NCBI GenBank assembly: GCA_027623195.1
Contig: JAQBUT010000040.1
Span: 1 to 18,169 of the forward strand
DNA from: Chloroflexota bacterium
GTDB taxonomy: Bacteria; Chloroflexota; Dehalococcoidia; Lucifugimonadales; JADFKI01
Reading direction: 5' to 3'
Length of the DNA: 18,169 bases
The position numbers and the translations under genes were made by a program. The notes beneath the pieces were generated by a model. That model worked only from the letters and a program-made list of their open reading frames with translations. It was not told the DNA's origin and did not search any database. This document shows positions 1,833 to 17,772 of this stretch, piece by piece (the stretch's first letter is position 1; the number at the start of each line of letters is the position of its first letter).

Positions 1833-4010
1833 ATGAAAATTACCAAATCCATAGGAATCGTTGCCATTGGCATTGTGGCTATGTTTGTATTCGCGGCCTG
1901 CGGCTCTGCGGACGAGCCAGCACCGGCTGCGCCCGCGCCCGCGGCGCCTGCAGCGGCACCGGCGGCACCACCTGCCGCGCCAGCCGCACCGGTTCCCGCA
2001 GCTCCCGCGCCGGCGTCGCCATCAAGCGGAACAGATCTAGTGGGTAAGCTTGAAGGTCCTGAAACCATTACCAACGTGAGCGATTACCCATCATCGTTTG
2101 GTGAGGCGCCACAGCTAGCGGCTATGGTCTCCGCGGGCAAGTTGCCCCCGGTCGCCGACCGCATACCGGTCCGCGAGGACCTCATGGTAATTGAGCCTGT
2201 AGAAATGACTGGCGAGTACGGCGGTATATGGCGGCGCGGCTTTACCGGCCCGGCCGACAAGTGGAATGGTTATCGATGTTGTTCCGGTCCCGACCACGTG
2301 CTCTTCTGGGACGTGACGGGCAGCGAACCTCGGCCAAATGTCGCCAAAGACTGGGAATTCAGCGCGGACGGCAGGGAAATAACTCTGTCCCTTCGCGAAG
2401 GCATGCGGTGGTCCGATGGAGCGCCCTTCACGGCCGACGACTTCATGTTCTGGTATGAAGACTTGTATCAGAACGACGAGCTCGTCCCCAATCAGGCTCC
2501 TTGGTTTGCCATTAATGGTAAGCAGGGCGTCATGTCGAAGGTCGACGATTACACACTGAAAATTGTATTCGAAGATCCATACTTCTTCTTCGCAGATGTG
2601 CTGGCCGGCTCAACCCCATTGGGTGGGCATGCCTACCAGGGCTTGAACGGTATGGGCATGTTCGCGCCGAAGCATTACCTATCCCAGTTTGTCCCCACAA
2701 TCGCCGGTGAGGCAGCCGTTGACGAGTTAGCCTCCGACGCGGGATACGACAACTGGGTGAATCTGATCAAGTTCAAGAACGACTGGTCGCTCAATCCGGA
2801 ACTGCCTGTGGTAACGCCGTGGCAGACCGTGACGCCAATCAACTCATCCACCTGGAAGTTGGAACGCAACCCGTACTACTGGGCCGTTGATACGGATGGA
2901 AACCAACTTCCGTACATCGACAGTGTCATCTTGACTCTGGCAGAGGACCTGGAAGTTATCAACCTGCGGGCCATAGCCGGCGAATACGACTGGCAGGCCA
3001 GGCATCTGAACATGGCGAAGGTTCCGGTCTTCCTCGAGAACCAGGAAAAAGGCGACTACAAGCTCTACTTCGACACGCAAGAGGTAGGAAGCGACGTCAT
3101 ACTGTCGTTCAACATGAGCTACACCGACGACCCGGAAATAGGTAAGTGGCTTGCTGACACGGAATTCCGTCGTGCATTAAGCCTGGGTATCGAGCGGGAT
3201 CAGCTTAATGAGGTGTTCTGGCTTGGCCTGGGTGTGCCGGGCTCCCATGCGCCGTCCACTACCAATCTGTTTAGCCCAGGGCCGGACTCTGAATGGAGAG
3301 ATAAGTGGTCGACGTTCCAGCCTGATGTCGCCAACAAGATGCTGGACGACCTCGGTTTGGATAAGAGAGACTCCGAAGGCTTTAGACTACGCTCCGACAA
3401 TGGAGAAAGGCTGGTTATAGAAATCAGTGGTCGTACTGCACAGTTCATGGAATTCGTGCAGATAGCGGAGATGGTTGCACTGCAGTGGTCCGATAATTTG
3501 AGTGTAAAGACCAATGTCTTGGCCGTGGAGCGAAGCCTTGAGGCCCAACGCGAAGCCGCGGACGAACATCAGATACAGTCTCGCTGGGGAGACGGTAGTG
3601 ACCACCTGTACACCTTCCCTGGTCACGTATTCCCCTCGTTCACCAGCAGCGGATTTGGATCAAAACTCGGCTTGTGGTTCGTCTCCAACGGCGAAAAGGG
3701 CCAGGAGCCGCAGCCAGAATTGAAAGAGGTAATGGCCAAATATAAGAAGGCCTTTGGTGTGCCGTTGGACGAGCGCATTCAACTCGGCCAGGAAATCTGG
3801 CAGACGGTGGTCGACCAGGCATGGGCGGTTGGTCTCGTCGGTCAGTCGCCTGCATCGCTGGGTGTGCGCATCGTGAAAAACGACCTGGGTAACGTGCCGG
3901 CCAGGCAGTTCAACAACCCGGATACCAAGACGCCAAGCATTTCCCGGCCAATTACGCTGTTCTGGAAGAGCGAGGAGAATCGTCAGCCGCAAGCCCTTAG
4001 CTACGAATAG
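1833..4010 (+). CDS. ABC transporter substrate-binding lipoprotein, family 5 (OppA/DppA-like)
   Basis: Lipoprotein signal ending FAAC, Pro/Ala-rich linker, GKLPPVADRIP, LREGMRWSDGAPFTADD, ERNPYYWAVD..GNQLPYID; GAGG SD. Confidence 0.93.
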   Translation: MKITKSIGIVAIGIVAMFVFAACGSADEPAPAAPAPAAPAAAPAAPPAAPAAPVPAAPAPASPSSGTDLVGKLEGPETITNVSDYPSSFGEAPQLAAMVSAGKLPPVADRIPVREDLMVIEPVEMTGEYGGIWRRGFTGPADKWNGYRCCSGPDHVLFWDVTGSEPRPNVAKDWEFSADGREITLSLREGMRWSDGAPFTADDFMFWYEDLYQNDELVPNQAPWFAINGKQGVMSKVDDYTLKIVFEDPYFFFADVLAGSTPLGGHAYQGLNGMGMFAPKHYLSQFVPTIAGEAAVDELASDAGYDNWVNLIKFKNDWSLNPELPVVTPWQTVTPINSSTWKLERNPYYWAVDTDGNQLPYIDSVILTLAEDLEVINLRAIAGEYDWQARHLNMAKVPVFLENQEKGDYKLYFDTQEVGSDVILSFNMSYTDDPEIGKWLADTEFRRALSLGIERDQLNEVFWLGLGVPGSHAPSTTNLFSPGPDSEWRDKWSTFQPDVANKMLDDLGLDKRDSEGFRLRSDNGERLVIEISGRTAQFMEFVQIAEMVALQWSDNLSVKTNVLAVERSLEAQREAADEHQIQSRWGDGSDHLYTFPGHVFPSFTSSGFGSKLGLWFVSNGEKGQEPQPELKEVMAKYKKAFGVPLDERIQLGQEIWQTVVDQAWAVGLVGQSPASLGVRIVKNDLGNVPARQFNNPDTKTPSISRPITLFWKSEENRQPQALSYE

Positions 4011-4031
4011 CAGCTGTTCTAGATAAAACGT

Positions 4032-4096
4032 GGGCTACTCCAAGCAGGCTCAGTTTACATGCCACGGGAGGTGTGTGAATCTCCATGGGGTAGCCC
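4032..4096 (+). other. Long intergenic stem-loop after the SBP gene (mRNA stabiliser or partial terminator)
   Basis: GGGCTACTCCA (4032-4042) pairs with TGGGGTAGCCC (4086-4096); inner stem TTTACATGCC/GGTGTGTGAA with G-U pairs. Confidence 0.55.
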
Positions 4097-4194
4097 CATT
4101 AATTTTACACTTAGGACGATAATTTTATTGTGGATGCACGTGCGGAGGGTTCAATGGCCCGTATTCACGTCCCTGTGAAGGCGGTGGATTTGAA

Positions 4195-5184
4195 GTGATA
4201 GGATTTATTGTCCGACGCTTTTTCCTTGCCTTGTTGACCATATGGGCAGTATCAGTCTTGTCCTTTGCAATCATACAGTTGCCGCCTGGCGACTACGTTA
4301 CGTCGTATGTGGCGCAGCTATTGTCGACTGGTACGCAGGTGTCAGAAGAAGAGGCAGACAACCTGCGTCAGCAGTACGGGCTAGGTAGCCCATTTCCCGT
4401 GCAGTATTACAAATGGGTGAGTCAGGCGGCTGGCGGAAACTTCGGCCTTTCCATGGAATATCAACGACCGGTCACGGAAGTCATCGGAGACCGCTTGATG
4501 CTAACTGCGGCTCTGGCATTCGTATCCATCGTATTTACCTGGATTTTGGCCATCCCTATTGGCGTATATTCGGCGGTGAAGCAGTATTCGATAGGCGATT
4601 ACGTATTCACGTTTATAGGTTTTCTGGGCCTAGCTGTGCCTAACTTTCTGCTGGCGCTCGTGCTGCTCTACCTAGGGTTTGTATACTTCGATTCCAACAT
4701 TGGTGGGCTGTTTTCGCCTGAAATGGCGGACGCTCCGTACAGCTTTGCCAAGATCATGGACCTGCTAAGCCACTTGTGGCTCCCGTCTATAATTCTTGCA
4801 GTAGCCGGCACGGCTCAGCTGATTCGCGTTTTGCGGGCCAACATGCTTGATGAGCTGCGAAAACCGTACGTGGTTACTGCCAGAGCCAAGGGGTTGAAGG
4901 AATGGCGAGTGGTGACAAAGTACCCCTTGCGCGTCGCTATGAATCCCCTGATCAGCACCGTCGGCTACCTGCTGCCGTTGCTGGTGTCGGGAAGCATCAT
5001 TATATCAATTGTAATGAGCTTACCCACGGTCGGTCCGATGCTGCTGAGAGCACTGTTGGCACAGGATATGTTCTTGGCAGGCACGATCATTCTCCTGATA
5101 GGGGTCATGACAGTCGCTGGCACATTCATATCCGATCTCATGCTGGCTTGGATCGATCCTCGAATCAGGGTGGAGGGCTCATAG
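4195..5184 (+). CDS. ABC transporter permease (OppB/DppB-like)
   Basis: Multiple TM segments; IQLPPGD; EAA-like loop LRANMLDELRKPYVVTARAKGL; C-terminal IDPRIR; GTG start. Confidence 0.93.
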   Translation: MIGFIVRRFFLALLTIWAVSVLSFAIIQLPPGDYVTSYVAQLLSTGTQVSEEEADNLRQQYGLGSPFPVQYYKWVSQAAGGNFGLSMEYQRPVTEVIGDRLMLTAALAFVSIVFTWILAIPIGVYSAVKQYSIGDYVFTFIGFLGLAVPNFLLALVLLYLGFVYFDSNIGGLFSPEMADAPYSFAKIMDLLSHLWLPSIILAVAGTAQLIRVLRANMLDELRKPYVVTARAKGLKEWRVVTKYPLRVAMNPLISTVGYLLPLLVSGSIIISIVMSLPTVGPMLLRALLAQDMFLAGTIILLIGVMTVAGTFISDLMLAWIDPRIRVEGS

Positions 5185-6330
5185 ATGGCCGGGGATAGTG
5201 TTGCTTTAGGAAGAGTAATAGAGGACGCCGCCGAAGATTCGACGGAACGTATTTACATTGCTACCCAGTGGCAGTTGATGTGGTGGAGACTCCGTAAACA
5301 TCGACTCGCAATGATAGCGGCTACCGTGTTGGCAATATTCTATCTCGCTGTTATTGGCGCAAATTTCCTGGCCACGTCAGACCCTCATTTAAGCGAAGCC
5401 AAACGGGGTGAAATGCCGCCTCAAGGCCTCCATTTTTTTGATGGATTCAAGCCGGGCCTTTATGTATACGGCGTCGCTGGCGCGCGCGATCCCAAGACTT
5501 TCAGGAAAATATTCGTGACAGACAAGGACACCAAAATACCGGTGAGGTTGTTTGCACGAGGTTTCGAGTACAAGTTCCTGGGCTTTCTTCCGACTGACAG
5601 GCATCTGCTGGGGGTCGCTAGCCCCCTAGTGGCAGAAGAATCCATATTCATTTTGGGAACGGACGTCCAGGGAAGAGATGTCTGGTCTCGATTAATGCTG
5701 GCTACCAGAATATCGATGAGCATAGGCCTCGTAAGCGTGACAGTCAGCCTCTTTTTGGGAGTGGTGCTAGGCGGGATATCCGGCTATTACGGTGGCTGGT
5801 CGGATATCATTATCCAGCGCGTAATCGAGATTCTGCGTTCCATACCCACCATTCCTCTGTGGATGGGCATCGCCGCCGCCGTGCCCCGCGACTGGTCGAT
5901 CATTAAGGTCTACTTTGCCATTACAATCATAATCTCCCTGATAGGGTGGACGACTCTGGCGCGGGAGGTCCGCGGTCGGTTCCTCTCTCTCAGAGATGAT
6001 GACTTTGTTACTGCGGCGGAGTTGGCGGGCGCGAGCAGAATGCGAATAATCTTCCGCCATATGGCCCCCTCTTTCATGAGCCACATAATTGCCGCAACAA
6101 CGTTAGCGCTGCCGGCAATCATCATAAGCGAGACCTCTTTGAGCTTTCTCGGATTGGGTCTTCGGCCGCCGGCGATTAGCTGGGGCGTCATGCTTCAGGC
6201 GGCGCAGAACGTACAAACTATTGCTTTGACACCGTGGCTCATGATTCCAGCTATACCTGTGGTCGCAGCCGTTCTGGCCTTCAATTTCCTGGGTGACGGC
6301 CTGAGAGATGCGGCAGACCCTTATGGATAG
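5185..6330 (+). CDS. ABC transporter permease (OppC/DppC-like)
   Basis: LGTDVQGRDVWSRL, FVTAAELAGAS, ETSLSFLGLG, FNFLGDGLRDAADP. Confidence 0.93.
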   Translation: MAGDSVALGRVIEDAAEDSTERIYIATQWQLMWWRLRKHRLAMIAATVLAIFYLAVIGANFLATSDPHLSEAKRGEMPPQGLHFFDGFKPGLYVYGVAGARDPKTFRKIFVTDKDTKIPVRLFARGFEYKFLGFLPTDRHLLGVASPLVAEESIFILGTDVQGRDVWSRLMLATRISMSIGLVSVTVSLFLGVVLGGISGYYGGWSDIIIQRVIEILRSIPTIPLWMGIAAAVPRDWSIIKVYFAITIIISLIGWTTLAREVRGRFLSLRDDDFVTAAELAGASRMRIIFRHMAPSFMSHIIAATTLALPAIIISETSLSFLGLGLRPPAISWGVMLQAAQNVQTIALTPWLMIPAIPVVAAVLAFNFLGDGLRDAADPYG

Positions 6331-6345
6331 GCGCTTTTATTTGAT

Positions 6346-7368
6346 ATGACTAGTCAAAGTGATTTATACCTTTCGGTTAGAAATCTAAAAACGCATTTCC
6401 CGCTGGACGAAGGAACTGTTGTCGCCGTCGACGGCGCCAGCTTTGACGTTCATCTAGGCAAAACCCTCGGTATCGTTGGGGAGAGCGGCTGCGGAAAGAG
6501 CGTTGCCGCGAGATCCATACTTGGTATTTTGGACAAGCCTGGCGAGATAGTGGACGGGGAGGTCCTTCTCCGTCGCACCAAGGGGGACAGTGGACAGGTC
6601 GATATGATAGACCTGACCACCCTCGACCCGAACGGGGAGGAGATGCGTTCCATCCGGGGGGCTGAAATAGCCTATGTCTTCCAGGAGCCGATGACGTCTT
6701 TCAGCCCAGTTCACACAATCGGCAACCAGCTAATCGAAGCCATAATGCTGCATCGTCCCGTCAAGAAGAAAGAGGCGCGGGAGTTGGCCGTGGACATGCT
6801 CCAGTTGGTGGGCATTCCATCGCCGGAAACGCGTGTCGACGAGTACGCTTTTCAACTAAGCGGGGGCTTGCGCCAGCGGGCAATGATCGCGATGGCCTTG
6901 TCCTGCAACCCTACCCTGCTCATCGCCGACGAGCCCTCTACGGCGTTGGATGTGACGACTCAGGCGCAGATTCTGGACCTGATGCGCAGGCTGCAATATG
7001 AGTACAACATGGCAATCATAATGATCACGCACGACCTCGGTGTAATAGCCGAAATGGCTGATCACGTGGTAGTCATGTATCTTGGGCGCGTTGTTGAGAG
7101 TGCGTCGGTCGACGACATATTCCATAACCCTAAACACCCATATACGAAGGCACTGCTGCAATCGATACCTCGAATGGGCGGTAGGGCGCGCGAGAAGCTG
7201 GCTTCTATTGCCGGAACAGTGCCGCACCCTTACGACCGACCTGTGGGATGTCCATTTAATCCCCGCTGCGAGTCCTTTATCAAAGGGACTTGCGATGCCA
7301 AGGAGCCTGAGCTTACAGCGATAGGCCCGAATCATCTGGTCAGTTGTTTTCTCTATGACGGAGGATAA
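6346..7368 (+). CDS. ABC transporter ATP-binding protein (OppD/DppD-like)
   Basis: Walker A GESGCGKS, signature LSGGLRQR, Walker B LLIADEP, C-terminal GCPFNPRC. Confidence 0.95.
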
Positions 7369-7371
7369 TCC

Positions 7372-8424
7372 TTGGTACAAACTGAAAAGCCAAGCGAAAA
7401 CAGACTTCTAGAGGTCAAGAATCTCAGCAAGTTCTTTCCCATAAAGAAGGGACTGCTTAGAAAAGAGGTCGGGGCTGTTCGCGCTGTGGACGACGTTTCG
7501 TTTTTCATCAACGAGGGAGAGACTCTCGGGCTGGTTGGCGAAAGCGGATGCGGCAAGACGACGACCTCGAGATGCATTCTTAGGGCGGTTAATCCGTCAA
7601 GTGGCGAGATAATATATCGCACGGAGGACGGCGAAACTGTCGACGTGGCAACAATGCCCCGTTCCCAGCTTCGAACCCTGCGGCGCGATATGCAAATGAT
7701 CTTCCAGGACCCGTTTTCATCGCTGAACCCACGTATGACGCTCATGGATATAGTAGGCGAGCCTCTGCTGGTACATGGCATGGGCAATAAGAAGCAGCGA
7801 GAGGAACGCGTGGCGGAGCTGCTGTCGCTGGTTGGGTTGCGCCCTGAGTATATGAGGCGTTTCCCGCATGCGTTCAGTGGGGGGCAGCGCCAGCGTATCG
7901 GCATTGCGAGAGCGTTGGCAACTCACCCGCGCCTGATTGTGGCCGACGAGCCAGTATCCGCGCTGGATGTGTCGGTACAGGCTCAAGTGCTCAATCTCCT
8001 GTTGGATTTGCAGGCCGAGCTTGGGCTAACCTACCTCTTCGTGGCCCACGACCTCAGCGTAGTGAAGCACATTAGCGACCGAGTCGCAGTGATGTACGTT
8101 GGCAAGATGGTAGAACTGGCGCCCACGGACATGCTGTTCACCAGACCTAAGCACCCTTACACGGCTGCGCTACTTTCGGCAGTCCCGGAACCGGATCCCC
8201 GCAGGCGGGCCACTCGTACAATTCTGCAGGGCGAAGTAGCTAATCCGGCCGACCCTCCTAAGGGCTGTTACTTCCACCCGCGATGTGAATACGCCACTGA
8301 CGTATGCAAAACTGAAACTCCACTTCTTCAGGAGACCGAGCCTGGCCATTTTGTTAGCTGCCACCGCGCCAAAGAACTTAGCCTGGCGGGCGTCGCAATC
8401 AATCCAGGCGAACAGGGCGCATAG
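7372..8424 (+). CDS. ABC transporter ATP-binding protein (OppF/DppF-like)
   Basis: Walker [42 protein letters not shown] start after GGAGG. Confidence 0.95.
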
Positions 8425-8433
8425 CTCGATATT

Positions 8434-9105
8434 GTGACACCGGCGAAGACCATGAGGTCACCAATAACGTTATCCATCCTTCGTCAGGACGGTCGTGCGG
8501 GCGCAGCAAAGGTCCGCCTGACCATCTGTTTGGCCCTTTTTGGGGCGAGTTTGGGTGCCTCCGGAATGCTTATCTCCTTCCTCGCGCGCACAAGGTTCCC
8601 GCTGGACCCAACTCATCTCGATTTTCAAGCGACTATTTTGCTGACGCCGTCTGGAGCGATTGCCGGAGCGGTGTTGGGCTCACTCCTAACGTGGCCGACG
8701 ACTAATAATGACGGCCGTTCGCATGGTCTCGTCTTGTGGCTCATTATGGGGTTCATGTTCGGCGTGCTGCTTTCCTTCGTTACAGGTCTGTTCATGCCAT
8801 ACTCGACTGCCGTACTAAACACAGCAAAGGGCGTGTCCGAGGCCTCGGATTTTATGCGCGACCTGGTTGACGCTGCATTCCGCATGCCCTCGGTCGCAGT
8901 GATTCAAGGTGTGTTCGGTCTGTTCACAGGTATGCTCATGGGTGCGTTCTTCATGTTAGGCGGCATGCTGATAGAGCGGTTCAACACCTCCCCTAACCCG
9001 CGCATATCGCGATACGCGCCTTACGTCATCGCCGTGGGACTAGCGGTCTTTTTTGTAGCTTTGGGCGCTTACGGCCCTGCCGACTTGCTAGCCAAGCTGG
9101 GGTAG
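8434..9105 (+). CDS. Hypothetical integral membrane protein
   Basis: 223-aa ORF with about 5 hydrophobic Gly-rich segments, 9 nt after the ATPase stop; start codon uncertain. Confidence 0.7.
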   Translation: MTPAKTMRSPITLSILRQDGRAGAAKVRLTICLALFGASLGASGMLISFLARTRFPLDPTHLDFQATILLTPSGAIAGAVLGSLLTWPTTNNDGRSHGLVLWLIMGFMFGVLLSFVTGLFMPYSTAVLNTAKGVSEASDFMRDLVDAAFRMPSVAVIQGVFGLFTGMLMGAFFMLGGMLIERFNTSPNPRISRYAPYVIAVGLAVFFVALGAYGPADLLAKLG

Positions 9106-9180: not shown

Positions 9181-9621
9181 CTAGCTGAGCTCGATTAGCG
9201 CCTCACCACCACGGACCTGCTGCCCTGGCTGTATCAGTATGCGGGCCACGGTGCCTGCTCCATCCGAGCGAATGCTCTGCTGCATTTTCATGGCTTCCAG
9301 AACGCAGGCCTCGTCGCCTACCGCAATGTGATCGCCGATGATGTGCCCCACCGATATGATGACGCCTGGCATGGGCGCTCGTATCGTGTGGCTGACTTCG
9401 CCCGTGACTGACTTGGCCTGGGAGAGGTGCGCTGGCGTTGGGTCCATTTGAGGCGAGTCTGTGGTCTGGACTTCGAGTTGTTCAGAGGTTCCCGCCATAC
9501 CATCAATGTCTACTTCCACGGGTTCCCCGTCTACAAGTACCCTTATCGGCACCGTCGTCAGGTCTTCCACCTCAACGGTGTACCATTTGGAGCCGACCTT
9601 TACCTTCAATACTCTCGTCAT
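9181..9621 (-). CDS. Biotin carboxyl carrier protein (stand-alone, MmdC/GcdC-like)
   Basis: IRAPMPGVI and the EAMKM biotinylation motif; N-terminal beta-hairpin-like region VLKVKVGSKWYTVEVE followed by a linker. Confidence 0.9.
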   Translation of the reverse strand: MTRVLKVKVGSKWYTVEVEDLTTVPIRVLVDGEPVEVDIDGMAGTSEQLEVQTTDSPQMDPTPAHLSQAKSVTGEVSHTIRAPMPGVIISVGHIIGDHIAVGDEACVLEAMKMQQSIRSDGAGTVARILIQPGQQVRGGEALIELS

Positions 9622-9628
9622 GGAAGAC

Positions 9629-10801
9629 CTACAACGCCGGCAACAGCGAAATAAAGATGCCGGCCACCACGGCCGAGCCTATGACGCCCGCGACGTTGGG
9701 GCCTATGGCGTGCGGCAACAGATACGTCCTGGGGTTGGCCTCCTGGCCTACGTGATGGGATATGCGCGCTGCCATTGGCACCGCCGACACTCCGGCCGAG
9801 CCGATGAGAGGGTTAATCTTCTGTCGCAGGAAGAGGTTCATTATCTTGGCGAAGATGAGTCCGCCCATGGTACCAGCGGAGAAGGCAACCAACCCTAATA
9901 TCAGGATGGCGATGGTTTGCAGCGAGAACACTCGCTCTGCGGATAGCTGGGTGCCCACCGTTATCATCAGGAAAATTGTTGCGATGTTTAATAACTCGTT
10001 AGATGCCGCGTTGGTAAGACGAGGCACCACGCCGCTTTCCCTGAAAATGTTGCCGATCATGAACATGGCTATTAGAGGGGCGGAACGCGGCACCACCAGG
10101 ATGATGAGGATCAAGGCAATGGTCGGGAACAGGAGCTTTTCTTTTTGTGACACCTCTCGAAGGGGAGGCATCTCGATGGACCTCTCGCTTTTAGTTGTAA
10201 GGAGCTTCATCAGTGGCGGCTGTATGAAGGCCACGGCGGCCATGTACGAGTAGGCGATAATCGCTGTGATTCCAAGCAATTCGGGGGCCAGCCTGGCCGA
10301 AAGGAATATTGTCGTCGGGCCGTCAGCGCCGCCTATGATGCCGATGGCAGCTGCCTGCTGTAAGGTAAAATCTACGCCCAGCCAGGGCAAGAAATTCAGG
10401 GCCAGCGCTCCCCAAAATGCCACGAATATGCCAACCTGAGCTGCTGCGCCCAAAAGCAAAGTCTTGGGATTAGCGATAATCGGCCCAAAGTCTGTCATGG
10501 CCCCAAGCCCAAGGAAAATGATCGGCGGCAACAGGTTCCAAAATGACAGGCCGAAGTGGAAGATTATGCCGAATATCCCCGACTCTTGAAATATGCTGGA
10601 CTCGGAGTCGAAAGTGGTCAGGCCAGTCAGCGGAAGGTTCGCGATCATGATGCCAAGGCCAATGGGAAGAAGCTCGTACGGTTCTAGTCCTCGACTAATG
10701 GCCAGGTATATGAAACCTAGGGCGACAACCAGCATAACGCCGTTGCGCCAGTCAATATTCATGAACCCGGTAGAGTTAAGGAAGTCGAAAAATTCAGTCA
10801 A
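9629..10801 (-). CDS. oadB: Na+-translocating decarboxylase beta subunit
   Basis: IFLGLGAMTDFGP, LLLGAAAQVGIF, IGIIGGADGPT, AYSYMA, INPLIGSAGVSAVPMAAR, GPNVAGVIGSA; TTG start, exact start uncertain. Confidence 0.95.
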   Translation of the reverse strand: MTEFFDFLNSTGFMNIDWRNGVMLVVALGFIYLAISRGLEPYELLPIGLGIMIANLPLTGLTTFDSESSIFQESGIFGIIFHFGLSFWNLLPPIIFLGLGAMTDFGPIIANPKTLLLGAAAQVGIFVAFWGALALNFLPWLGVDFTLQQAAAIGIIGGADGPTTIFLSARLAPELLGITAIIAYSYMAAVAFIQPPLMKLLTTKSERSIEMPPLREVSQKEKLLFPTIALILIILVVPRSAPLIAMFMIGNIFRESGVVPRLTNAASNELLNIATIFLMITVGTQLSAERVFSLQTIAILILGLVAFSAGTMGGLIFAKIMNLFLRQKINPLIGSAGVSAVPMAARISHHVGQEANPRTYLLPHAIGPNVAGVIGSAVVAGIFISLLPAL

Positions 10802-10893
10802 TAGGGGTCTCGTCTAAGAAGGACAACGCCGTTAATATCTTGGATTTCTTGGAACACATGAACACTTCAGAAAGTAACGATAGCATATGTGGT

Positions 10894-11160
10894 TTACGGC
10901 TTAGCGCCGGCGCCCTTACTTGATAGCAAGACCGTAACGGCGGCGATTGCTGCCAATGCCCTATCTGAAAGCTCCTGTTGGGTTGGCGGCGCGGGATCTT
11001 TAAGTCGCCACCACGGCCGACCGGAGGGCCTCTCCAGAACCTGCTTCACCAGCAGATGTATACCGCCGACAATGAACATCATCAGTAATAAAAGCCCGAA
11101 GGCCGTGCCTATTCCTATTACCGTAAGTGTCAGGGCCTTTTCAAAAATCGCCGGATCGAT
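10894..11160 (-). CDS. oadG: OadG-family (gamma/delta) membrane anchor subunit, probable non-canonical ATC start
   Basis: The frame of the listed 62-aa ORF stays open upstream as IDPAIFEKALTLTVIGIGTAFGLLLLMMF (a single N-terminal TM helix), followed by a Pro-rich linker and ALAAIAAV; GAGGGG SD 6 nt before ATC at 11160; directly upstream of oadB. Confidence 0.75.
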   Translation of the reverse strand: MDPAIFEKALTLTVIGIGTAFGLLLLMMFIVGGIHLLVKQVLERPSGRPWWRLKDPAPPTQQELSDRALAAIAAVTVLLSSKGAGAKP

Positions 11161-11325
11161 GTGTTACCCCTCTTTAATTCAATTCATGCTTCGATTTTTG
11201 ACGCTTTCCCTCGCTGCGCCGGTGGGAATTTTACATGAACATGCTAAATCAAACTAGACGATTATAACTGGATTACCTGCAGGGAATGAGTTTCGACGCC
11301 TAAATGACGTTACTCAGTCTCGTAC

Positions 11326-11354
11326 TGGAAAGCCAACTGTCTACTCTATATAAT
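11326..11354 (+). promoter_or_regulatory. Candidate sigma70 promoter for the pxpABC-like operon
   Basis: TGGAAA (11326-11331), 17 nt, TATAAT (11349-11354); a minus-strand TATAAT at 11261-11266 could serve oadG. Confidence 0.45.
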
Positions 11355-11404
11355 TGTGGCACCACTTACACCCAAGGCAATTGAACACATCAGGAGGCCT
11401 GCGC

Positions 11405-12169
11405 ATGGCCAGCAAGATCGACTTTAACTGCGATATGGGCGAAAGCTTCGGCATGTACAAGATGGGTTTCGACGAAGAGGTCATCAAACACATTACGTCG
11501 GCCAACATAGCTTGTGGCTTCCACGCCGGTGACCCCCAGTGGATGAGGTACACAGTAAGGCTGGCCGAGGAGCATGGCGTAGCCGTTGGGGCCCACCCTA
11601 GCTTTCCGGACTTGAATGGATTTGGTCGTCGTAACATGAACGCCACCCCTGAAGAGGTCAAAAACGACGTAACGTACCAGGTCGGCGCGTTGCAGGCGTT
11701 CACGTCGGGCAGGAGGCTTCAGCACGTCAAGCCCCACGGCGCTATGTACAACATGGCGGTGAACGATGAATCATTGGGCCAGGCTATCTGCGAGGCAATC
11801 CTTGAGATTGATCCGGAGATGATCCTTGTTGCCCTGGCCGAGTCCCGCTGGGTTAAGCTTGCTGAGGACATGGGTCTTCGTGTTGCCCGCGAGATATTCG
11901 CTGACCGTGCGCTTAACGCGGATGGCACATTGGTATCGCGATCCAAGACCGGCTCAGTTATTCATGACGTCAACGAGGTGGTGGAGCGCAGCGTTCGCAT
12001 GGTGACAGAGGGCAAAGCCGTTGCCATAGATGGCGAGGTCATCGATGTGCAAGCAGATAGCCTGTGCCTGCATGGCGACACTCCGGGAGCTGTAGAGATG
12101 GCAAAGGCAGTTCGAGAAGGATTGGAAAACGCGGGAGTTAAAATCGTCTCGCTGGGTCAGTTAGTCTGA
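11405..12169 (+). CDS. pxpA: LamB/YcsF family protein (5-oxoprolinase subunit A-like)
   Basis: IDFNCDMGESFG, SANIACGFHAGDP, GAHPSFPD..GFGRR, HVKPHGAMYN, LCLHGDTPGA; ATG at 11405 after AGGAGG (the ORF-track start at 11354 is too far upstream). Confidence 0.92.
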   Translation: MASKIDFNCDMGESFGMYKMGFDEEVIKHITSANIACGFHAGDPQWMRYTVRLAEEHGVAVGAHPSFPDLNGFGRRNMNATPEEVKNDVTYQVGALQAFTSGRRLQHVKPHGAMYNMAVNDESLGQAICEAILEIDPEMILVALAESRWVKLAEDMGLRVAREIFADRALNADGTLVSRSKTGSVIHDVNEVVERSVRMVTEGKAVAIDGEVIDVQADSLCLHGDTPGAVEMAKAVREGLENAGVKIVSLGQLV

Positions 12170-12900
12170 TGCTGGACAGGCCAAAGTTCCTACTATCCGG
12201 AGACACAGCGCTGGTGGTTGAGTTGGGCGATGAGATCAGCCCTGAGATCAACCGTCGGGTGCGCGACCTCAGCGTGGCGATAGAGAAAGCCAATATACCC
12301 GGAGTCTTTGATTACCTACCGACTTACCGCTCCGTTCTGGTCTATTACGACCCTTTGGCCACATCTCTGGAAAAGCTCAAATCGGAGATTGAGAGGCTTA
12401 ACAACGGCGCGGGAAGTCAGGAAGTCGGCGAACCTATGGTCGTTCACCTGCCAACGCTTTACGGCGGTGACCATGGTCCTGATATCGAGTTCGTCGCGGA
12501 GAACGCAGGCATCAGCGTGGAAGAGGTCATTGCGACCCACTCCGGCACCGACTACCTGGTCTACATGATGGGATTCAGCCCAGGCTTCGCATACCTCGGA
12601 GGGCTTTCTGAGAAGCTGGTCACGCCCAGGCTGTCCAGCCCGCGCATTGAAATACCGGCCGGGTCTGTCGGCATCGCCGAGACCCAAACGGGTGTCTACC
12701 CTATCGCTAGCCCGGGAGGTTGGCGGCTTATCGGCAGAACTCCGGTAAAGCTCTTCGATTCCCTACGGGTACCGCCTGTGTTTTTGAACGCTGGCGATTA
12801 CGTAAGGTTTACGCCAGTCCAAAGTCTTGAGGAGTACGCCGACCTGGAACGTCAGGCTAACTCCGGCGAACTGAAAGTCGTTACGGAGGCCGTGAAATGA
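12169..12900 (+). CDS. pxpB: PxpB/KipI family protein (homologous to urea carboxylase CT subdomains C/D)
   Basis: GDTALVVELG, PTYRSVLVYYDP, YMMGFSPGFAYLGGL, IPAGSVGIA..QTGVYP..SPGGWRLIGRTP; TGATG overlap with pxpA. Confidence 0.92.
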   Translation: MLDRPKFLLSGDTALVVELGDEISPEINRRVRDLSVAIEKANIPGVFDYLPTYRSVLVYYDPLATSLEKLKSEIERLNNGAGSQEVGEPMVVHLPTLYGGDHGPDIEFVAENAGISVEEVIATHSGTDYLVYMMGFSPGFAYLGGLSEKLVTPRLSSPRIEIPAGSVGIAETQTGVYPIASPGGWRLIGRTPVKLFDSLRVPPVFLNAGDYVRFTPVQSLEEYADLERQANSGELKVVTEAVK

Positions 12901-14045
12901 GCAAACCGGCATTCGAAGTACTTGAGGCAGGCCTGCTGACAACGGTGCAGGACAGAGGGCGTTACGGCTATCAGCGTTTCGGAATGCCGGTGGCAGGCGC
13001 GATGGACGTCTTTGCTTTGCGCGTTGGCAATGCGTTGGTAGGCAACGACGATAGTGCAGCCGGCCTGGAAATGACAGTCCTGGGACCCAAGATACGTTTT
13101 CATGCTGATACCTGGATCGCGGTAACTGGGGCGGACTTGGGCGCCAAGCTAAATAGCGAATCCCTGGCAACTTGGCAGTCGATTCAGGTCGCGAAGGACG
13201 ACGTGCTTAGTTTTCAGGGGCCTCAGGATGGTATGCGGGCCTACCTGGCCATCGCGGGCGGTATTGACGTACCGGTGGTTATGGGCAGCCGCTCGACTTA
13301 CGTTAAAGCGGCCATCGGTGGACTTGCAGGCAGAGGCCTGAAGCCCGGCGACGTTTTGGACACGGAGGAATCACGTACTGCCTTCATTGCGCGGCGAGCC
13401 CCTGAGAGACTCAGCCAAGGCTATGGCAGTGAGCACGACGTAAGGGTGGTCCTGGGGCCGCAGGACGACAGGTTTACGAAGGCAGGTCTTGAGACCTTTC
13501 TCGGTTCTCAATACACAGTAGCCATTCAGTCTGATCGCATGGGATATCGCCTGGAAGGCCCGAGCATTGAGCACGCGGATGGTCCTGATGTAATATCTGA
13601 CGGCACAGCCTATGGGGCTGTCCAGGTGCCAGGCGACGGCCAACCCATCGTCCTACTGGCTGATCGCGGAACCACTGGCGGTTACACTAAGGTCGCCACG
13701 GTGATAAGCTCGGACCTGCAAAAGTTTGCGCAGGCGATGCCAGGGCACACCGTGTCGTTCCGGGCAGTGTCTGTTGAAGAGGCCCACGAGCTTTATCGCA
13801 GTCGTGAGGCGCTGCTTATGGGCATTCGAAACGACGCAGGAGCGGACGTGCTGTCCTCCTTGGAGGAGGCGCGGTCGCGTATAAGCGTTAGCGTCGGTGA
13901 TCAGCAAATCGAAATCATGGACGAGGGCGGTGATGATCTGCCGGTTCCAGCCTGGGTGCTAGAGTCCGGCGCTGCACGCCAATTCAAAGGCAGGGCCGGT
14001 ATTCAAGGCGAGACCTTCGAGTTCAATGTCACTGTGCAAAATTAG
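12897..14045 (+). CDS. pxpC: PxpC/KipA family biotin-dependent carboxyltransferase-like protein with C-terminal extension
   Basis: GLLTTVQDRGR, GAMD, GNALVGN, MGSRSTY, SDRMGYRL, GAVQVPGDGQPIVLLADRGTTGGY; ATGA overlap with pxpB; about 70 extra C-terminal residues. Confidence 0.9.
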   Translation: MSKPAFEVLEAGLLTTVQDRGRYGYQRFGMPVAGAMDVFALRVGNALVGNDDSAAGLEMTVLGPKIRFHADTWIAVTGADLGAKLNSESLATWQSIQVAKDDVLSFQGPQDGMRAYLAIAGGIDVPVVMGSRSTYVKAAIGGLAGRGLKPGDVLDTEESRTAFIARRAPERLSQGYGSEHDVRVVLGPQDDRFTKAGLETFLGSQYTVAIQSDRMGYRLEGPSIEHADGPDVISDGTAYGAVQVPGDGQPIVLLADRGTTGGYTKVATVISSDLQKFAQAMPGHTVSFRAVSVEEAHELYRSREALLMGIRNDAGADVLSSLEEARSRISVSVGDQQIEIMDEGGDDLPVPAWVLESGAARQFKGRAGIQGETFEFNVTVQN

Positions 14046-14108: not shown

Positions 14109-15158
14109 ATGGGTAAGCGAATAGCAGTTTTTGGCGCAGGGGCAGCAGGCAGCTACATAGGCGCCTTCCTGACTCGAGAAGGGCATGACATCACGCTGAT
14201 CGATATGTGGGGTCAGCATGTTGATGCCATGAACGAGAAGGGTTTGAGCGTCCAAGGCTCACAAGGGCCATTCACGGTACCGGTAAAAGCGGTGCATGTG
14301 ACCGACGCCATCAACATCACGGAACCTTTCGATATTATATTCCTGGCGGTGAAGTCCTACGACACCGAGTGGTCCAGCCACTTCATCAAGAGATTCCTTT
14401 CCCCGACAGGCGTCGTGGTTAACAGCCAGAACTGCATGAACGACGCGCTGACCGCTTCCATCGTTGGTTATGAGCGGCAGGTCGGCTGCATTATGTCCAG
14501 CATCACCGTGGCGCTTTGGGAGCCAGCCGTTGTAATTCGTGGCGGCCAGCCAGGTAGGGACCGTGGGCATGATGTCTACCGCGTTGGTGAGCTACACGGG
14601 CAGATAACACCGCGAGTGGAGGAGATCGCCGAGATGCTTAGCTGCATTGACGGCTCTCACGCCACATCCAACATATGGGGCGAACGATGGTCCAAGCTCA
14701 CCACAAACTCCGTCGGAAATCCCGTTGGAGCTATGACTGGACAAGGCTCACAGACCTTCGCTTTGGACCCAAGGGCCCGTCTGATACAGGTTCAGATAGC
14801 CAAAGAGACCTGCCAGGTAGGGTTGGCTCTGAACGTTAATATAGCCCCCGTCAGTGGCGTCGAAGCATCCACATGGGCCAAGGCAGACGATGGGGAGGTT
14901 TTCGAGGAGCTTGATGCCAAGTTCCAGCCCAAGGTCGACGCTGCGGACTGGCGCTCTTCCATGGCCCAGGACGTGGTAAAGGGACGGCACACGGAGATCG
15001 AGTACATGAACGGCTACACCGTGAAGCGCGGTCTTGAGCTGGGCATAGCAACACCCGTGAGCGCGGCCATTGTCGACGTCGTGAAGCAGATCGACGCCGG
15101 TACGTTGAAGCCTGATCCCTCCCACGTGGAGCGCGTTCTTAGCATGGCAGGCCTATAA
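14109..15158 (+). CDS. Ketopantoate reductase (PanE/ApbA) family oxidoreductase
   Basis: Rossmann motif GAGAAGS, FLAVKSYD, WSKLTTN, SSMAQDVVKGRHTEIEYMNG; AAGGAG SD; substrate not established. Confidence 0.88.
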   Translation: MGKRIAVFGAGAAGSYIGAFLTREGHDITLIDMWGQHVDAMNEKGLSVQGSQGPFTVPVKAVHVTDAINITEPFDIIFLAVKSYDTEWSSHFIKRFLSPTGVVVNSQNCMNDALTASIVGYERQVGCIMSSITVALWEPAVVIRGGQPGRDRGHDVYRVGELHGQITPRVEEIAEMLSCIDGSHATSNIWGERWSKLTTNSVGNPVGAMTGQGSQTFALDPRARLIQVQIAKETCQVGLALNVNIAPVSGVEASTWAKADDGEVFEELDAKFQPKVDAADWRSSMAQDVVKGRHTEIEYMNGYTVKRGLELGIATPVSAAIVDVVKQIDAGTLKPDPSHVERVLSMAGL

Positions 15159-15226: not shown

Positions 15227-15841
15227 ATGTTGGAATTATTTCACCAGCTTTCTGACTGGTTGCTCGCATTCGCCGACAGCCCCTGGGCAATAGGCATACT
15301 GATGGCTACCTCCTTTTCGGAGTCCATCTTCTTCCCGATTCCGCCCGATCCTCTTCTAATTGGCATCGCGATACCGCAACAAGGCTCCGCGTTGTGGTTG
15401 GCCGCGCTGGTCACGCTATTCTCCGTAGCCGGGGCATTAGTTGGGCATTGGTTGGGTATGAAGTTCGGCAGCCCGATCCTCCACCGGTTCGTTTCCGATA
15501 GAAAAGTTGCCACCGTGGAGAATATGTTCCGCAAGTACGGTATGTGGGCCGTCCTCCTGGCCGCCTTCACGCCTATACCTTACAAGGTCTTCGCCGTCAC
15601 CGCAGGCGTGCTGAAATTGGAACGCCGACCCTTCATCATCGCCTCCTTAATCGGCAGGGGTGCCCGTTTCATGATTATTGGCGGCCTCATCTTCTTCTTC
15701 GGTGAGTCGATTCAGGTCTTCATATCGGACCAGTTCGAGCTTCTTACGCTAATCACAGCAGTTGCCCTTGTGCTTTTGCTGATAGGCGTATTCGTGTTCG
15801 CCAAAGTACGCAAGTCCAGGAAGCTGGCCAGCGAGGTCTGA
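15227..15841 (+). CDS. YqaA/DedA family (VTT domain) membrane protein
   Basis: SFSESIFFPIPPDPLLI, AAFTPIPYKVF, SLIGRGARF. Confidence 0.9.
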   Translation: MLELFHQLSDWLLAFADSPWAIGILMATSFSESIFFPIPPDPLLIGIAIPQQGSALWLAALVTLFSVAGALVGHWLGMKFGSPILHRFVSDRKVATVENMFRKYGMWAVLLAAFTPIPYKVFAVTAGVLKLERRPFIIASLIGRGARFMIIGGLIFFFGESIQVFISDQFELLTLITAVALVLLLIGVFVFAKVRKSRKLASEV

Positions 15842-16674
15842 TGTCTGCTTCAGAAGGCGACGTTCGCTCCGAATGCCTTGTTGAGCCCGCCTGGGTCGAG
15901 TCCCACCTGAGCGACGTGAACCTCGTTATCGTAGACATCGACGCTGAGGCCGGTTATCGACGTGGCCATGTGCCGAGCGCTGTGACCTTGCACCCCGATT
16001 ACGAGCGCGATACCGAGACCGGCTGGGTAAGCACCATGCCCCCTGATAGGTTCGCCGAGGTTTGCCGCAGCCTGGGAATTGGCGATGACACGCTGGTTGT
16101 GGTCTACGACAACAACATGAGCCTTCCCGCGTCACGTCTGTGGTGGGTTCTGAGGCTACACGGTCACGCCAACGTCAGGGTGATGGACGGCGGATGGAGA
16201 ACGTGGCTTCAGGAGAGGCGCGCCGTCAGCTTCGAATCCCCTACACCGAAAGCTGACGTTACTTTTACCCCCAGACGCGACGATACCATGCTGGGCGCAC
16301 TGGACGACGTGAAAGCGGCATGCGGCCTGGATAGCGCCGTGATATGGGACGTGCGCACCGAGGGCGAGTACGACGGCAGCGTGAACCGGGGCAATAACAA
16401 CAGGGCTGGCCACATAGCCGGAGCTGTGCATGTGGAGTGGTCGGACCTCATGCACGCGAACACCCACCGCTTTAAGCCTGACGAAGAGATGCGGACGATC
16501 CTGAACGCCAAAGGCATCACCCCCGACAGGACGGCCTACGCCTACTGACAGGCCGGACTCCGCGCGGCGCACGGAGTGTTCGTACTAAAGATACTGGGCT
16601 ACGACGACGCCAGGAACTACGACGGCTCCATGTACGAATGGGCCAACCGCGACGACACGCCCATGGAGATGTAG
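15841..16674 (+). CDS. Tandem-domain rhodanese/sulfurtransferase, probable selenoprotein (Sec236 at TGA 16546-16548), 277 aa
   Basis: GHVPSA, ASRLWWVL, MDGGW, DVR...EY, GHIAGA; the frame continues past TGA as AYAY-U-QAGLRAAHGVFVLKILGYDDARNYDGSMYEW to TAG 16672-16674, restoring the active-site loop and the YDGS..EW signature. Confidence 0.88.
16557..16577 (+). promoter_or_regulatory. Candidate bacterial SECIS element
   Basis: ACTCCG-C-GC-(GGC loop)-GC-A-CGGAGT; G-initiated apical loop with 17 nt between it and the UGA. Confidence 0.65.
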
Positions 16675-16704: not shown

Positions 16705-17178
16705 TTACAAGCTCTCCCCCGTTGGCCGGTACTGCAGTGCTTCGGCAAGGTGGGCTATGCCTATGATAGGCTCCCCGGCCAGGTCTGCGATGGTGCGGGA
16801 GACTTTTAGGATGCGGTGAAAGCCCCGCGCCGAGAGTTGCATCTGCTTCATGGCTGAATTCAGAAGAGCTTTTGCAGTGTCGTCCATCTGGCAGAGGTTC
16901 CAGACTTCTGTGGGACCCATCTCCGCGTTCGTGAGTATCGACGTGTCCTTGAAGCGCGAGTACTGTCGCTGACGGGCCTCCTCTACTCGCTCTCGTACTT
17001 GGCTGGAAGACTCTGAGTCAGATGGTTGTGTCAGCTTCTCGTAATCGACCCTTGGGACCTCAACGAACATGTCGATCCTGTCCAAAAGCGGGCCGCTGAT
17101 ACGCCGCTTGTACCTGGCCACCTCGTTTGAAGAGCAGGTGCACTCCCGAATTGGGTCGCTGTAATAACCGCACGGGCA
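16705..17178 (-). pseudogene. comM: 3' portion of comM/yifB (Mg-chelatase-like AAA+ ATPase), interrupted
   Basis: CPCGYY..C.C, RISGPLLDRID, ESSSQVRERVEEAR, LSARGFHRILKVSRTIADL, EALQYR; the expected preceding AAMNP and the whole N-terminal part are missing. Confidence 0.9.
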
Positions 17179-17185
17179 TTCGTGC
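17170..17185. mobile_element. Candidate attachment-site junction in comM
   Basis: GCACG-GGCATT-CGTGC inverted repeat centred on 17177-17178, exactly where comM similarity stops. Confidence 0.55.
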
Positions 17186-17430
17186 AAATAACTGCGCTAC
17201 AATTACGAAGCCCGTGGCGTTACGATAGCCTCGTAATGCTGTATAAGTCCACGCCGGTAAGAAAGCAGCCTTGAGGGCGTTGGGTCCGCTGGTCGTTCTT
17301 GAGCATAGAGCGGCCATCGCCAGCATCACATCCCTCAATTGGTGGACAATCATGGAAGTACTCGTAATCACTGATGATGTTCTGGTAGATTGGGAAGCAA
17401 ACACTATTCGACTTTCGAGCGGTCGTCGAG

Positions 17431-17772
17431 ATGTATCAGGATTATGAAGGCTTCCCCAGTGCCTTCTACGGTGAATCTTATTTAGACCCTGCACTATGGG
17501 AATACATCGACATGGACGAAGACGATAACGAGATGCTTGAGGTCCATACCGAATACGTGGGACCCAGCAATATTGACGATGCCCGCGATGCCTGCTACGG
17601 GACTTGCGATAACCCGGAAGATTGGGCTTTTGAATATCTGAATGAAACGGGCATGCTCAATGATGTCCCAGACGATATTAAGGCTTACATCGATTACGAG
17701 TCCTACGCTCGTGATTCGGGTATGATTTTTGCCCGGCGCAATGGGAAGATATGGGTATTCAATAACATCTAG
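17431..17772 (+). CDS. ardA: ArdA-like antirestriction protein, N-terminally truncated (possible pseudogene)
   Basis: Highly acidic; MYQDYEGFP...GES, YG, DVPDDIKAYIDYESYARD, C-terminal WVF; in-frame TAG at 17386-17388 excludes the usual N-terminal domain. Confidence 0.75.
   Translation: MYQDYEGFPSAFYGESYLDPALWEYIDMDEDDNEMLEVHTEYVGPSNIDDARDACYGTCDNPEDWAFEYLNETGMLNDVPDDIKAYIDYESYARDSGMIFARRNGKIWVFNNI

Follow-up and report, generated by a model that had tools for sequence, protein, structure and literature searches.

Na+-pumping decarboxylases are known from anaerobes, where they conserve energy by acting on one of four substrates. The described enzymes (OadABG, PDB 6IVA/6IWW; MmdABCD; GcdABCD; malonate decarboxylase) have a membrane beta subunit, a gamma/delta anchor and a biotin carrier. 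PxpABC, which is the 5-oxoprolinase of Bacillus subtilis, Escherichia coli (YbgL/J/K) and Corynebacterium glutamicum and, in Pseudomonas putida, a butyrolactam hydrolase (PP_2920-2), has three subunits. Here we analyse contig JAQBUT010000040.1 of a SAR202-type marine Chloroflexota bacterium (assembly GCA_027623195.1; order Lucifugimonadales, family JADFKI01), a stretch of 18,169 nucleotides (nt) hereafter called the window, in which oadG, oadB and the gene for BCCP (the biotin carboxyl carrier protein) stand divergent from pxpA, pxpB and pxpC. Judged by its genes, the locus resembles a Na+-translocating decarboxylase module combined with a PxpABC lactamase: the beta subunit with its key residues, the gamma/delta anchor and the biotin carrier with its lysine are all present, as are the three PxpABC subunits. 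It differs from the known decarboxylases in that no OadA- or MmdA-type carboxyltransferase is found in the operon, where the conserved neighbour is pxpABC, in an anchor devoid of the epsilon-type tail, in a host with haem-copper oxidases and in the proposed direction, carboxylation. The characterised PxpABC enzymes are set apart from it by a hairpin tail on PxpC, a PxpC score under the equivalog cut-off and the linkage to a membrane biotin module.

PxpC and PxpB homologues that bind BCCP and biotin are described for Mycobacterium smegmatis, where, in the available part of the report (PMC13012033), MSMEG_0435-0436 sits on the long-chain acyl-CoA carboxylase (PDB 9YX5) and holds BCCP-biotin placed for carboxyl transfer, while an epsilon helix wrapped by four hairpins forms an eight-stranded barrel. 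In that complex biotin carboxylase (BC) and ATP load the carrier, docking involves AccD5 and a regulatory role is proposed, whereas here BC is missing and the helix is membrane-anchored. The urea/guanidine carboxylase of Kluyveromyces lactis (3VA7/5I8I) has the same carboxyltransferase fold that PxpC and PxpB compose together, but the locus lacks its BC domain, splits the subunits and replaces its K1605 by Arg.

The pairing of OadB with PxpABC is real, conserved and uncharacterised. We surveyed 151 genomes of the order, scoring oadB as linked when it lay within 10 kb of pxpC; kin genomes are not independent, so no statistical test was run. OadB was found in 99 genomes and PxpC in 92, with PxpC in 81 of the 99 OadB-positive versus 11 of the 52 OadB-negative genomes. 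Where both were present, oadB and pxpC were linked in 57 of 81 genomes (53 divergent, 4 co-directional), spread over 29 family codes and two separate OadB lineages, which bears out the co-localisation across genomes that a preliminary description of this DNA had proposed to look for. The family f37 has a single-strand operon, pxpA-pxpB-pxpC-oadG-BCCP-oadB, seen at 16 of 17 Chloroflexota loci. Its OadB shares about 47% identity with the one in the window; a single clade uniting f37 OadB with the window clade was rejected by the approximately unbiased (AU) test (p = 0.001; 29 chosen rows, LG+G4), and an 86-row quick tree of OadB gave the same separation. In genome G046, where no oadB was found, the BCCP gene stands divergent from pxpA.

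The closest relatives of the window OadB carry the titles Dehalococcoidia or SAR202. Among the best 80 OadB loci from GTDB, pxp genes were found at 15, all within the 61 Chloroflexota-titled loci. Of 199 Chloroflexota genomes that do not belong to the order, 15 carry both genes, in no case linked (read off tables); the non-Chloroflexota oadB loci fetched (19 and 63) showed no pxp linkage, nor did 37 non-Chloroflexota loci that carry the BCCP motif, some of them with short flanks. No description of an OadB-PxpABC pairing turned up in the literature, in a search that mostly did not cover subscription papers and did not include supplements.

Pfam and NCBIfam scans of the window open reading frames (ORFs; 14 main ones) confirmed that the oadG-oadB-BCCP unit and the divergent pxpA-pxpB-pxpC are all present and arranged as first described. 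OadB, a single copy in the genome, matches PF03977 (E 3.6e-140) and TIGR01109 (470.6 bits against a cut-off of 190.6). By alignment it keeps the equivalents of all of E40, D203, Y229, R304, N373, S382 and N412 of Salmonella OadB, residues named as essential (Na+ sites, proton relay) in the available text of PMC7274780. The BCCP, besides which the assembly yielded no free-standing biotin carrier, has its biotinylation lysine at K112 in EAMKMQQ, at least 90% conserved across 41 sequences. At the relative loci L068, L072 and L325 the BCCP has two biotin-domain matches, which suggests a tandem two-biotin carrier there. OadG consists of a membrane helix and a cytosolic Ala-rich helix, without a W-x3-GR-like tail; its OAD_gamma match (E 5e-5, 24.3 bits) lies below the cut-off of 27, and its position and pattern are conserved in relatives. 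Read from the sequence, oadG starts with ATC at 11160, after AAAGAGGGG. The OadG of many relatives also begins near an Ile codon, with no Met, and gene callers may miss or shorten oadG owing to the ATC start.

The Pxp proteins pass their NCBIfam thresholds (PxpA, NF003814, 377.5 over 226; PxpB, TIGR00370, 204.8 over 145.55; PxpC, TIGR00724, 326.9 over 230.2), while PxpC scores 274.9 bits with the equivalog model NF045499, whose cut-off is 500. The structure model of PxpC matches 5DUD and 3MML, beyond which solved homologues the protein extends by about 70 residues. In the AlphaFold2 model (mean pLDDT 86.8) this hairpin extension spans about residues 325-382, with a terminal hairpin at 360-381 (pLDDT about 71-84) and, near 330-338, a second, weaker hairpin; Foldseek with the full model returned the carboxyltransferase fold alone and was uninformative on the tail. 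In PxpB the invariant R154 occupies, in an alignment made via a bacterial urea carboxylase, the position of urea-carboxylase K1605, the proposed general base of that enzyme according to the available text of PMC5770610; urea/allophanate chemistry was rejected on this residue. Membership of the family does not fix the lactam, since P. putida paralogues use 5-oxoproline or butyrolactam (bioRxiv 10.1101/2021.12.09.472016, available part), and the portion of PMC10949508 at hand does not place biotin genes with butyrolactam catabolism. A Natrononativus plasmid has the gene order pxpB-pxpC-accC-pxpA; three other pxp regions inspected have no annotated biotin carboxylase.

A profile of the PxpC tail, built from 41 sequences of the order, matches 62 of 71 PxpC proteins of the order and 0 of 29 from other Chloroflexota. 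Two short PxpC of the order (G028, G034) come from genomes with neither OadB nor OadA. Only 4 close proteins were found in a search with the tail, among 188 candidates. In hhalign comparisons the tail scored 62% over 16 columns with the N-terminal hairpin of BCCP and 66% over 27 with the OadA hairpin, against 0.2% for the biotinyl domain as control. OadG was recovered at 59 of the 64 oadB loci examined (5 dropped), and its W-x3-GR-like tail was seen in 0 of 46 main-clade genomes with pxp genes, in 3/3 main-clade genomes without them and in 7/7 of a third clade. By analogy with AccE (PMC13012033, available part), this tail would anchor CoA-type (MmdA) carboxyltransferases; an epsilon-like ORF lies downstream of mmdA at 17 of 20 loci (by pattern), including that of this genome.

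A three-chain model of OadG 50-88, BCCP 1-46 and, as partner, PxpC 322-382 scored 0.48 against 0.02 for the best of three controls, with contacts agreeing to at least 88% and a partner pLDDT of at least 61, and replacement of the BCCP chain abolished the score. Among solved pairs 116 of 157 reach the mark for such models, and among mismatched pairs 2 of 215; at scores up to 0.60, however, it is reached by only 18 of the 157 and by both mismatches. A complex of PxpC, BCCP and OadG, which the preliminary description had proposed to model together with PxpB, is weakly supported by the difference from the controls, at a score in the unreliable range, and these structural hints likewise lend weak support to a docking of PxpC on the OadG-BCCP module.

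As stated earlier for the window, no OadA/MmdA/GcdA carboxyltransferase or biotin carboxylase is encoded among its 14 main ORFs, and genome-wide searches put none on its contig. The premise drawn from this, that the carboxyltransferase is missing, was rejected at the level of the genome, which encodes MmdA/PccB, OadA and AccDA on other contigs; what the locus lacks, the cell has in trans, and 149 of the 151 genomes match the MmdA query. Contig C32 (L009:9318-13948) carries mmdA/pccB, an unannotated epsilon-like ORF of 65 aa (ACC_epsilon E 0.018, a weak match), an oadA that includes a biotin domain, and a gene read as mdh, with sdhAB adjacent, and contig C11 (L010:6920-8725) carries an accD-accA fusion. 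Transcarboxylase-type systems are composed of 12S, 5S and 1.3S components. In its parts the mmdA-epsilon-oadA(biotin)-mdh cluster matches a soluble oxaloacetate:acyl-CoA transcarboxylase, for which it is a candidate, but it stands on another contig. Methylmalonyl-CoA mutase, present in 109 of 151 genomes of the order, was found neither in this genome nor in the four other family genomes searched (0/5; three single-contig). For this reason acetyl-CoA and malonyl-CoA are the likelier transcarboxylase pair, and a succinate-fed methylmalonyl-CoA pump was rejected for this family.

The assembly, which is 87% complete, holds one pxpABC set and two biotin carriers, the window BCCP and the domain on OadA; three further PF00364 matches sit in unannotated open frames of 451-491 aa. 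Searches of this assembly with two Pfam models and tblastn gave no biotin carboxylase. The genome has two COX1 genes and a pyrophosphatase that looks K+-dependent by its motif.

Across the order, OadB and BC are largely complementary. BC was found in 73 genomes, an OadA domain in 89 (an upper bound, since short non-OadA proteins are taken in), MmdA in 149 (matches to the query at E<=1e-20, mostly strong) and AccDA in 113. Both OadB and BC occur in 26 genomes, OadB only in 73, BC only in 47 and neither in 5, three of which are 68-77% complete; OadB is thus present in 73 of the 78 BC-less genomes. Among 35 single-contig genomes, 15 are without BC and all 15 have OadB (read off tables). For the 72 genomes with AccDA and no detected BC, the corresponding numbers are 68 with OadB and 60 with an OadA domain. 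The pattern of OadA against BC is similar and looser, with an OadA domain in 66 of the 78 BC-less genomes and neither in 12. On the question, raised earlier, of whether the linked genomes lack oadA/mmdA/gcdA, 14 linked genomes have no OadA domain, and MmdA is nearly universal in the order. Three genomes (G012, G069, G105) each encode 10-13 PYC_OADA-domain proteins of about 500 aa.

What the data show is the identity of the genes, the intact residues of the Na+ site, the conservation of the linkage, what the genome contains, the tail on PxpC and the lack of one on OadG. As the single likeliest of four readings, held tentatively, we propose that Na+ influx through OadB makes carboxybiotin and that PxpBC spends it. 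OadG, OadB and BCCP would together make up a biotin module in the membrane, with PxpABC coupled to it; hairpins of the BCCP N-terminus and of the PxpC tail may wrap the cytosolic helix of OadG. Na+ entering via OadB would drive CO2/HCO3- onto biotin, opposite to the normal direction of the pump, and so replace biotin carboxylase. PxpBC would then pass the carboxyl group on to a lactam (probably 5-oxoproline), at its ring nitrogen; PxpA would hydrolyse the activated ring, and the carbamate would shed CO2 to yield the amino acid. CO2 would act catalytically, and the ion gradient instead of ATP would pay for lactam opening. In BC-less genomes the module may additionally top up carboxybiotin for AccDA and MmdA. 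Na+-driven carboxylation in place of BC had been a secondary idea of the preliminary description; it fits the absence of BC here and the presence of OadB in most BC-less genomes better than the direction then preferred, the carboxylation itself being a prediction. The pump was reportedly reversed in vitro by Dimroth and Hilpert in 1984.

The energetics favour this direction. In the available text of PMC13274462 the opening of 5-oxoproline has a Keq of about 0.035 and phosphorylation by PxpBC is assumed; ATP hydrolysis by PxpBC is reported in that of PMC8453981. Because the hydrolysis of the lactam is uphill, a Na+-driven reverse direction is favoured over Na+ export fed by Pxp. Lactam opening needs about +8 kJ/mol, and 2 Na+ in with 1 H+ out (OadB stoichiometry from the available part of PMC7274780) gives about 17-29 kJ/mol under assumed gradients. 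Oxaloacetate decarboxylation is listed at -34 kJ/mol in the accessible part of PMC8085960, so the reverse OadB step would lie near or below equilibrium and need a downstream pull.

Several observations weigh against a reversed OadB that feeds PxpABC. The ATP synthase c subunit looks to be of the H+ type by its motif. In the portions available, PxpABC is described as ATP-dependent and without a biotin role (PMC13274462, PMC8453981), and the M. smegmatis complex is read as inhibitory and shows no urea carboxylase activity (PMC13012033). Conventional carboxyltransferases in trans could use OadB in its normal direction, and OadA transcarboxylation alone could account for most of the BC absence; 14 of the 57 linked genomes also carry BC, and Thermotoga maritima, included as a control row, combines OadB and OadA with a CoA-type carboxyltransferase and shows no BC or PxpC. 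Regarding the linkage, 24 of 81 genomes have the genes further than 10 kb apart (in 11 they share a contig, at a distance of 13.6 kb in one case, and in 13 they sit on separate contigs), and the divergent layout may go back to one ancestral event. Of 11 OadB-negative genomes 8, each with OadA, retain the PxpC tail, which is therefore not OadG-specific; the OadG of f37 has a tail-like motif in 3/3. As to the three-chain model, the tool calls its score range more often wrong than right, and since similar barrels are solved (AccE-AccA3) the score may reflect memory of the model.

In a rival reading the BCCP would be a shared hub, loaded by OadA from oxaloacetate or by MmdA from malonyl-/methylmalonyl-CoA, with OadB decarboxylating it and exporting Na+ and PxpBC on the same BCCP borrowing carboxyls for lactam activation or sequestering biotin in a regulatory role, the role proposed in M. 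smegmatis. The mmdA-epsilon-oadA-mdh cluster of this genome speaks for it, as do the docking hairpin that OadA shares with the PxpC tail, the retention of that tail in the OadB-negative, OadA-positive genomes and, in the available portions of the reports, the binding of alpha by the cytosolic helix of a Salmonella-type gamma subunit (PMC7274780) and of AccD5 and BCCP by MSMEG_0435-0436, which halves propionyl-CoA carboxylase activity (PMC13012033). However, the 14 linked genomes without an OadA domain, the lack of the MmdA-anchoring tail in OadG of the main-clade pxp-positive genomes and the failure to find the mutase in the family are hard to fit; moreover OadA has its own biotin domain, so that a free BCCP would be superfluous for it, and a respiring cell with two COX1 genes would gain little by decarboxylating oxaloacetate. 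We consider such a hub possible, if doubtful. That the two units are unrelated neighbours, kept together by inherited gene order, is unlikely; one would then be an ordinary OAD/MMD-type pump that is split and has oadA/mmdA to complete it, the other an ordinary ATP-dependent 5-oxoprolinase. Pump partners are in trans in nearly all genomes, nearly a third of the genomes with both genes are unlinked, and no linkage was found in the 15 two-gene Chloroflexota genomes outside the order or in the non-Chloroflexota loci fetched; but mere adjacency leaves unexplained a second OadB lineage within one pxpABC operon, the order-specific PxpC hairpin, an OadG tail that tracks pxp loss and the BCCP kept beside pxpA in G046.

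The direction preferred in the preliminary description was Na+ export fed by Pxp, in which biotin would receive, by way of PxpBC, the carboxyl of an N-carboxy substrate (an allophanate-like compound or a product of ring opening), making a new Na+-pumping decarboxylase. Carboxybiotin exceeds a simple carbamate in carboxyl-transfer potential, which counts against this scheme, as does the residue at the position of urea-carboxylase D1584, which is not Asp here. The scheme draws on the same linkage and docking evidence as Na+-driven carboxylation and on the intact Na+ sites of OadB, and the four family members so far characterised all work physiologically as decarboxylases (PMC8085960, available part). 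In addition to the uphill hydrolysis, the replacement of K1605 by R154 weakens it, the locus suggests no abundant N-carboxy substrate, and where a pxp cluster elsewhere has a biotin-loading partner this is BC, which points to carboxybiotin consumption. We now regard it as quite improbable, the weakest of the four. Taken jointly over three of the four readings, a functional coupling of PxpABC to the OadG-OadB-BCCP module is probable.

Table 1. Genes and intergenic region of the oadB-pxpABC locus and its downstream neighbours (window coordinates)
Feature	Position	Strand	Basis or remarks
BCCP, biotin carboxyl carrier protein	9181..9621	-	PF00364; two N-terminal beta-hairpins, linker, biotinyl domain
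oadB, OadB/MmdB-type membrane carboxybiotin decarboxylase (beta subunit)	9629..10801	-	PF03977 and TIGR01109
oadG, OadG/MmdD-type anchor, 88 aa	10894..11160	-	OAD_gamma; ATC start inferred
Divergent intergenic region, 244 bp	11161..11404	.	Promoter-like sites not above chance
pxpA, PxpA (LamB/YcsF), presumed metal-dependent lactam hydrolase subunit	11405..12169	+	NCBIfam
pxpB, PxpB (KipI-like; carboxyltransferase subdomains C/D)	12169..12900	+	NCBIfam
pxpC, PxpC (KipA-like; carboxyltransferase subdomains A/B), C-terminal beta-hairpin extension	12897..14045	+	NCBIfam
Ketopantoate-reductase (PanE/ApbA) family oxidoreductase	14109..15158	+	Profile scans
DedA/VTT membrane protein	15227..15841	+	Profile scans

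The divergent units had been said to share a 244-bp promoter region. The distance is correct (11160 to 11405), and no promoter is shown, because a promoter/terminator scan of the interval gave no excess (3 sigma-70-like sites versus 3.7 expected by chance); one such site, at 11326-11354, is directed toward pxpA. Downstream of pxpC, a PanE/ApbA-family gene is found at 5 of 15 pxp loci of relatives and a DedA/VTT gene at 14 of 15. Elsewhere in the window lie a DUF1800 gene (57-1460, minus strand), a peptide/nickel-type ABC transporter operon (1833-8424, plus strand) and, convergent with the BCCP gene, a 223-aa hydrophobic protein (8434-9105, plus strand) without a Pfam or NCBIfam match, for which tblastn found no match in 80 oadB loci. 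A rhodanese/sulfurtransferase gene (15841-16674, plus strand) has an in-frame TGA at the catalytic-cysteine position (AYAY-TGA-QAGLRAA), after which the frame continues for 41 residues, and beyond it lies a hairpin of -17 kcal/mol (no shuffle control); the TGA and the read-on frame are also present in the relative locus L044. Its product is probably a selenocysteine enzyme, truncated by gene callers at 16548. At 16705-17772 the C-terminal part of a YifB/ComM-type ATPase stands beside an ArdA antirestriction fragment; the GC content is lower at this end of the contig, and a mobile element may have inserted into comM here.

The energy coupling of PxpABC is only assumed in the papers cited here, as a phosphorylation by PxpBC, though these subunits have the fold of a biotin carboxyltransferase, and the locus makes this point testable. 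If a reversed pump does feed PxpABC, PxpABC enzymes in general would work through carboxybiotin. The occurrence of OadB in 99 of 151 genomes, largely where BC is missing, suggests either a new class of partner or routine reverse operation, which, if true, would cost less than 1 ATP per carboxylation by a rough estimate. Whichever direction OadB runs, the 72 genomes with AccDA and no detected BC need a non-ATP source of carboxybiotin for fatty-acid synthesis. It is conceivable, though on balance we think it unlikely, that in SAR202 a Na+ pump is physiologically reversed into an ATP-free biotin carboxylase that powers a membrane-docked PxpABC and, in BC-less lineages, supplies the carboxybiotin pool for malonyl-CoA.

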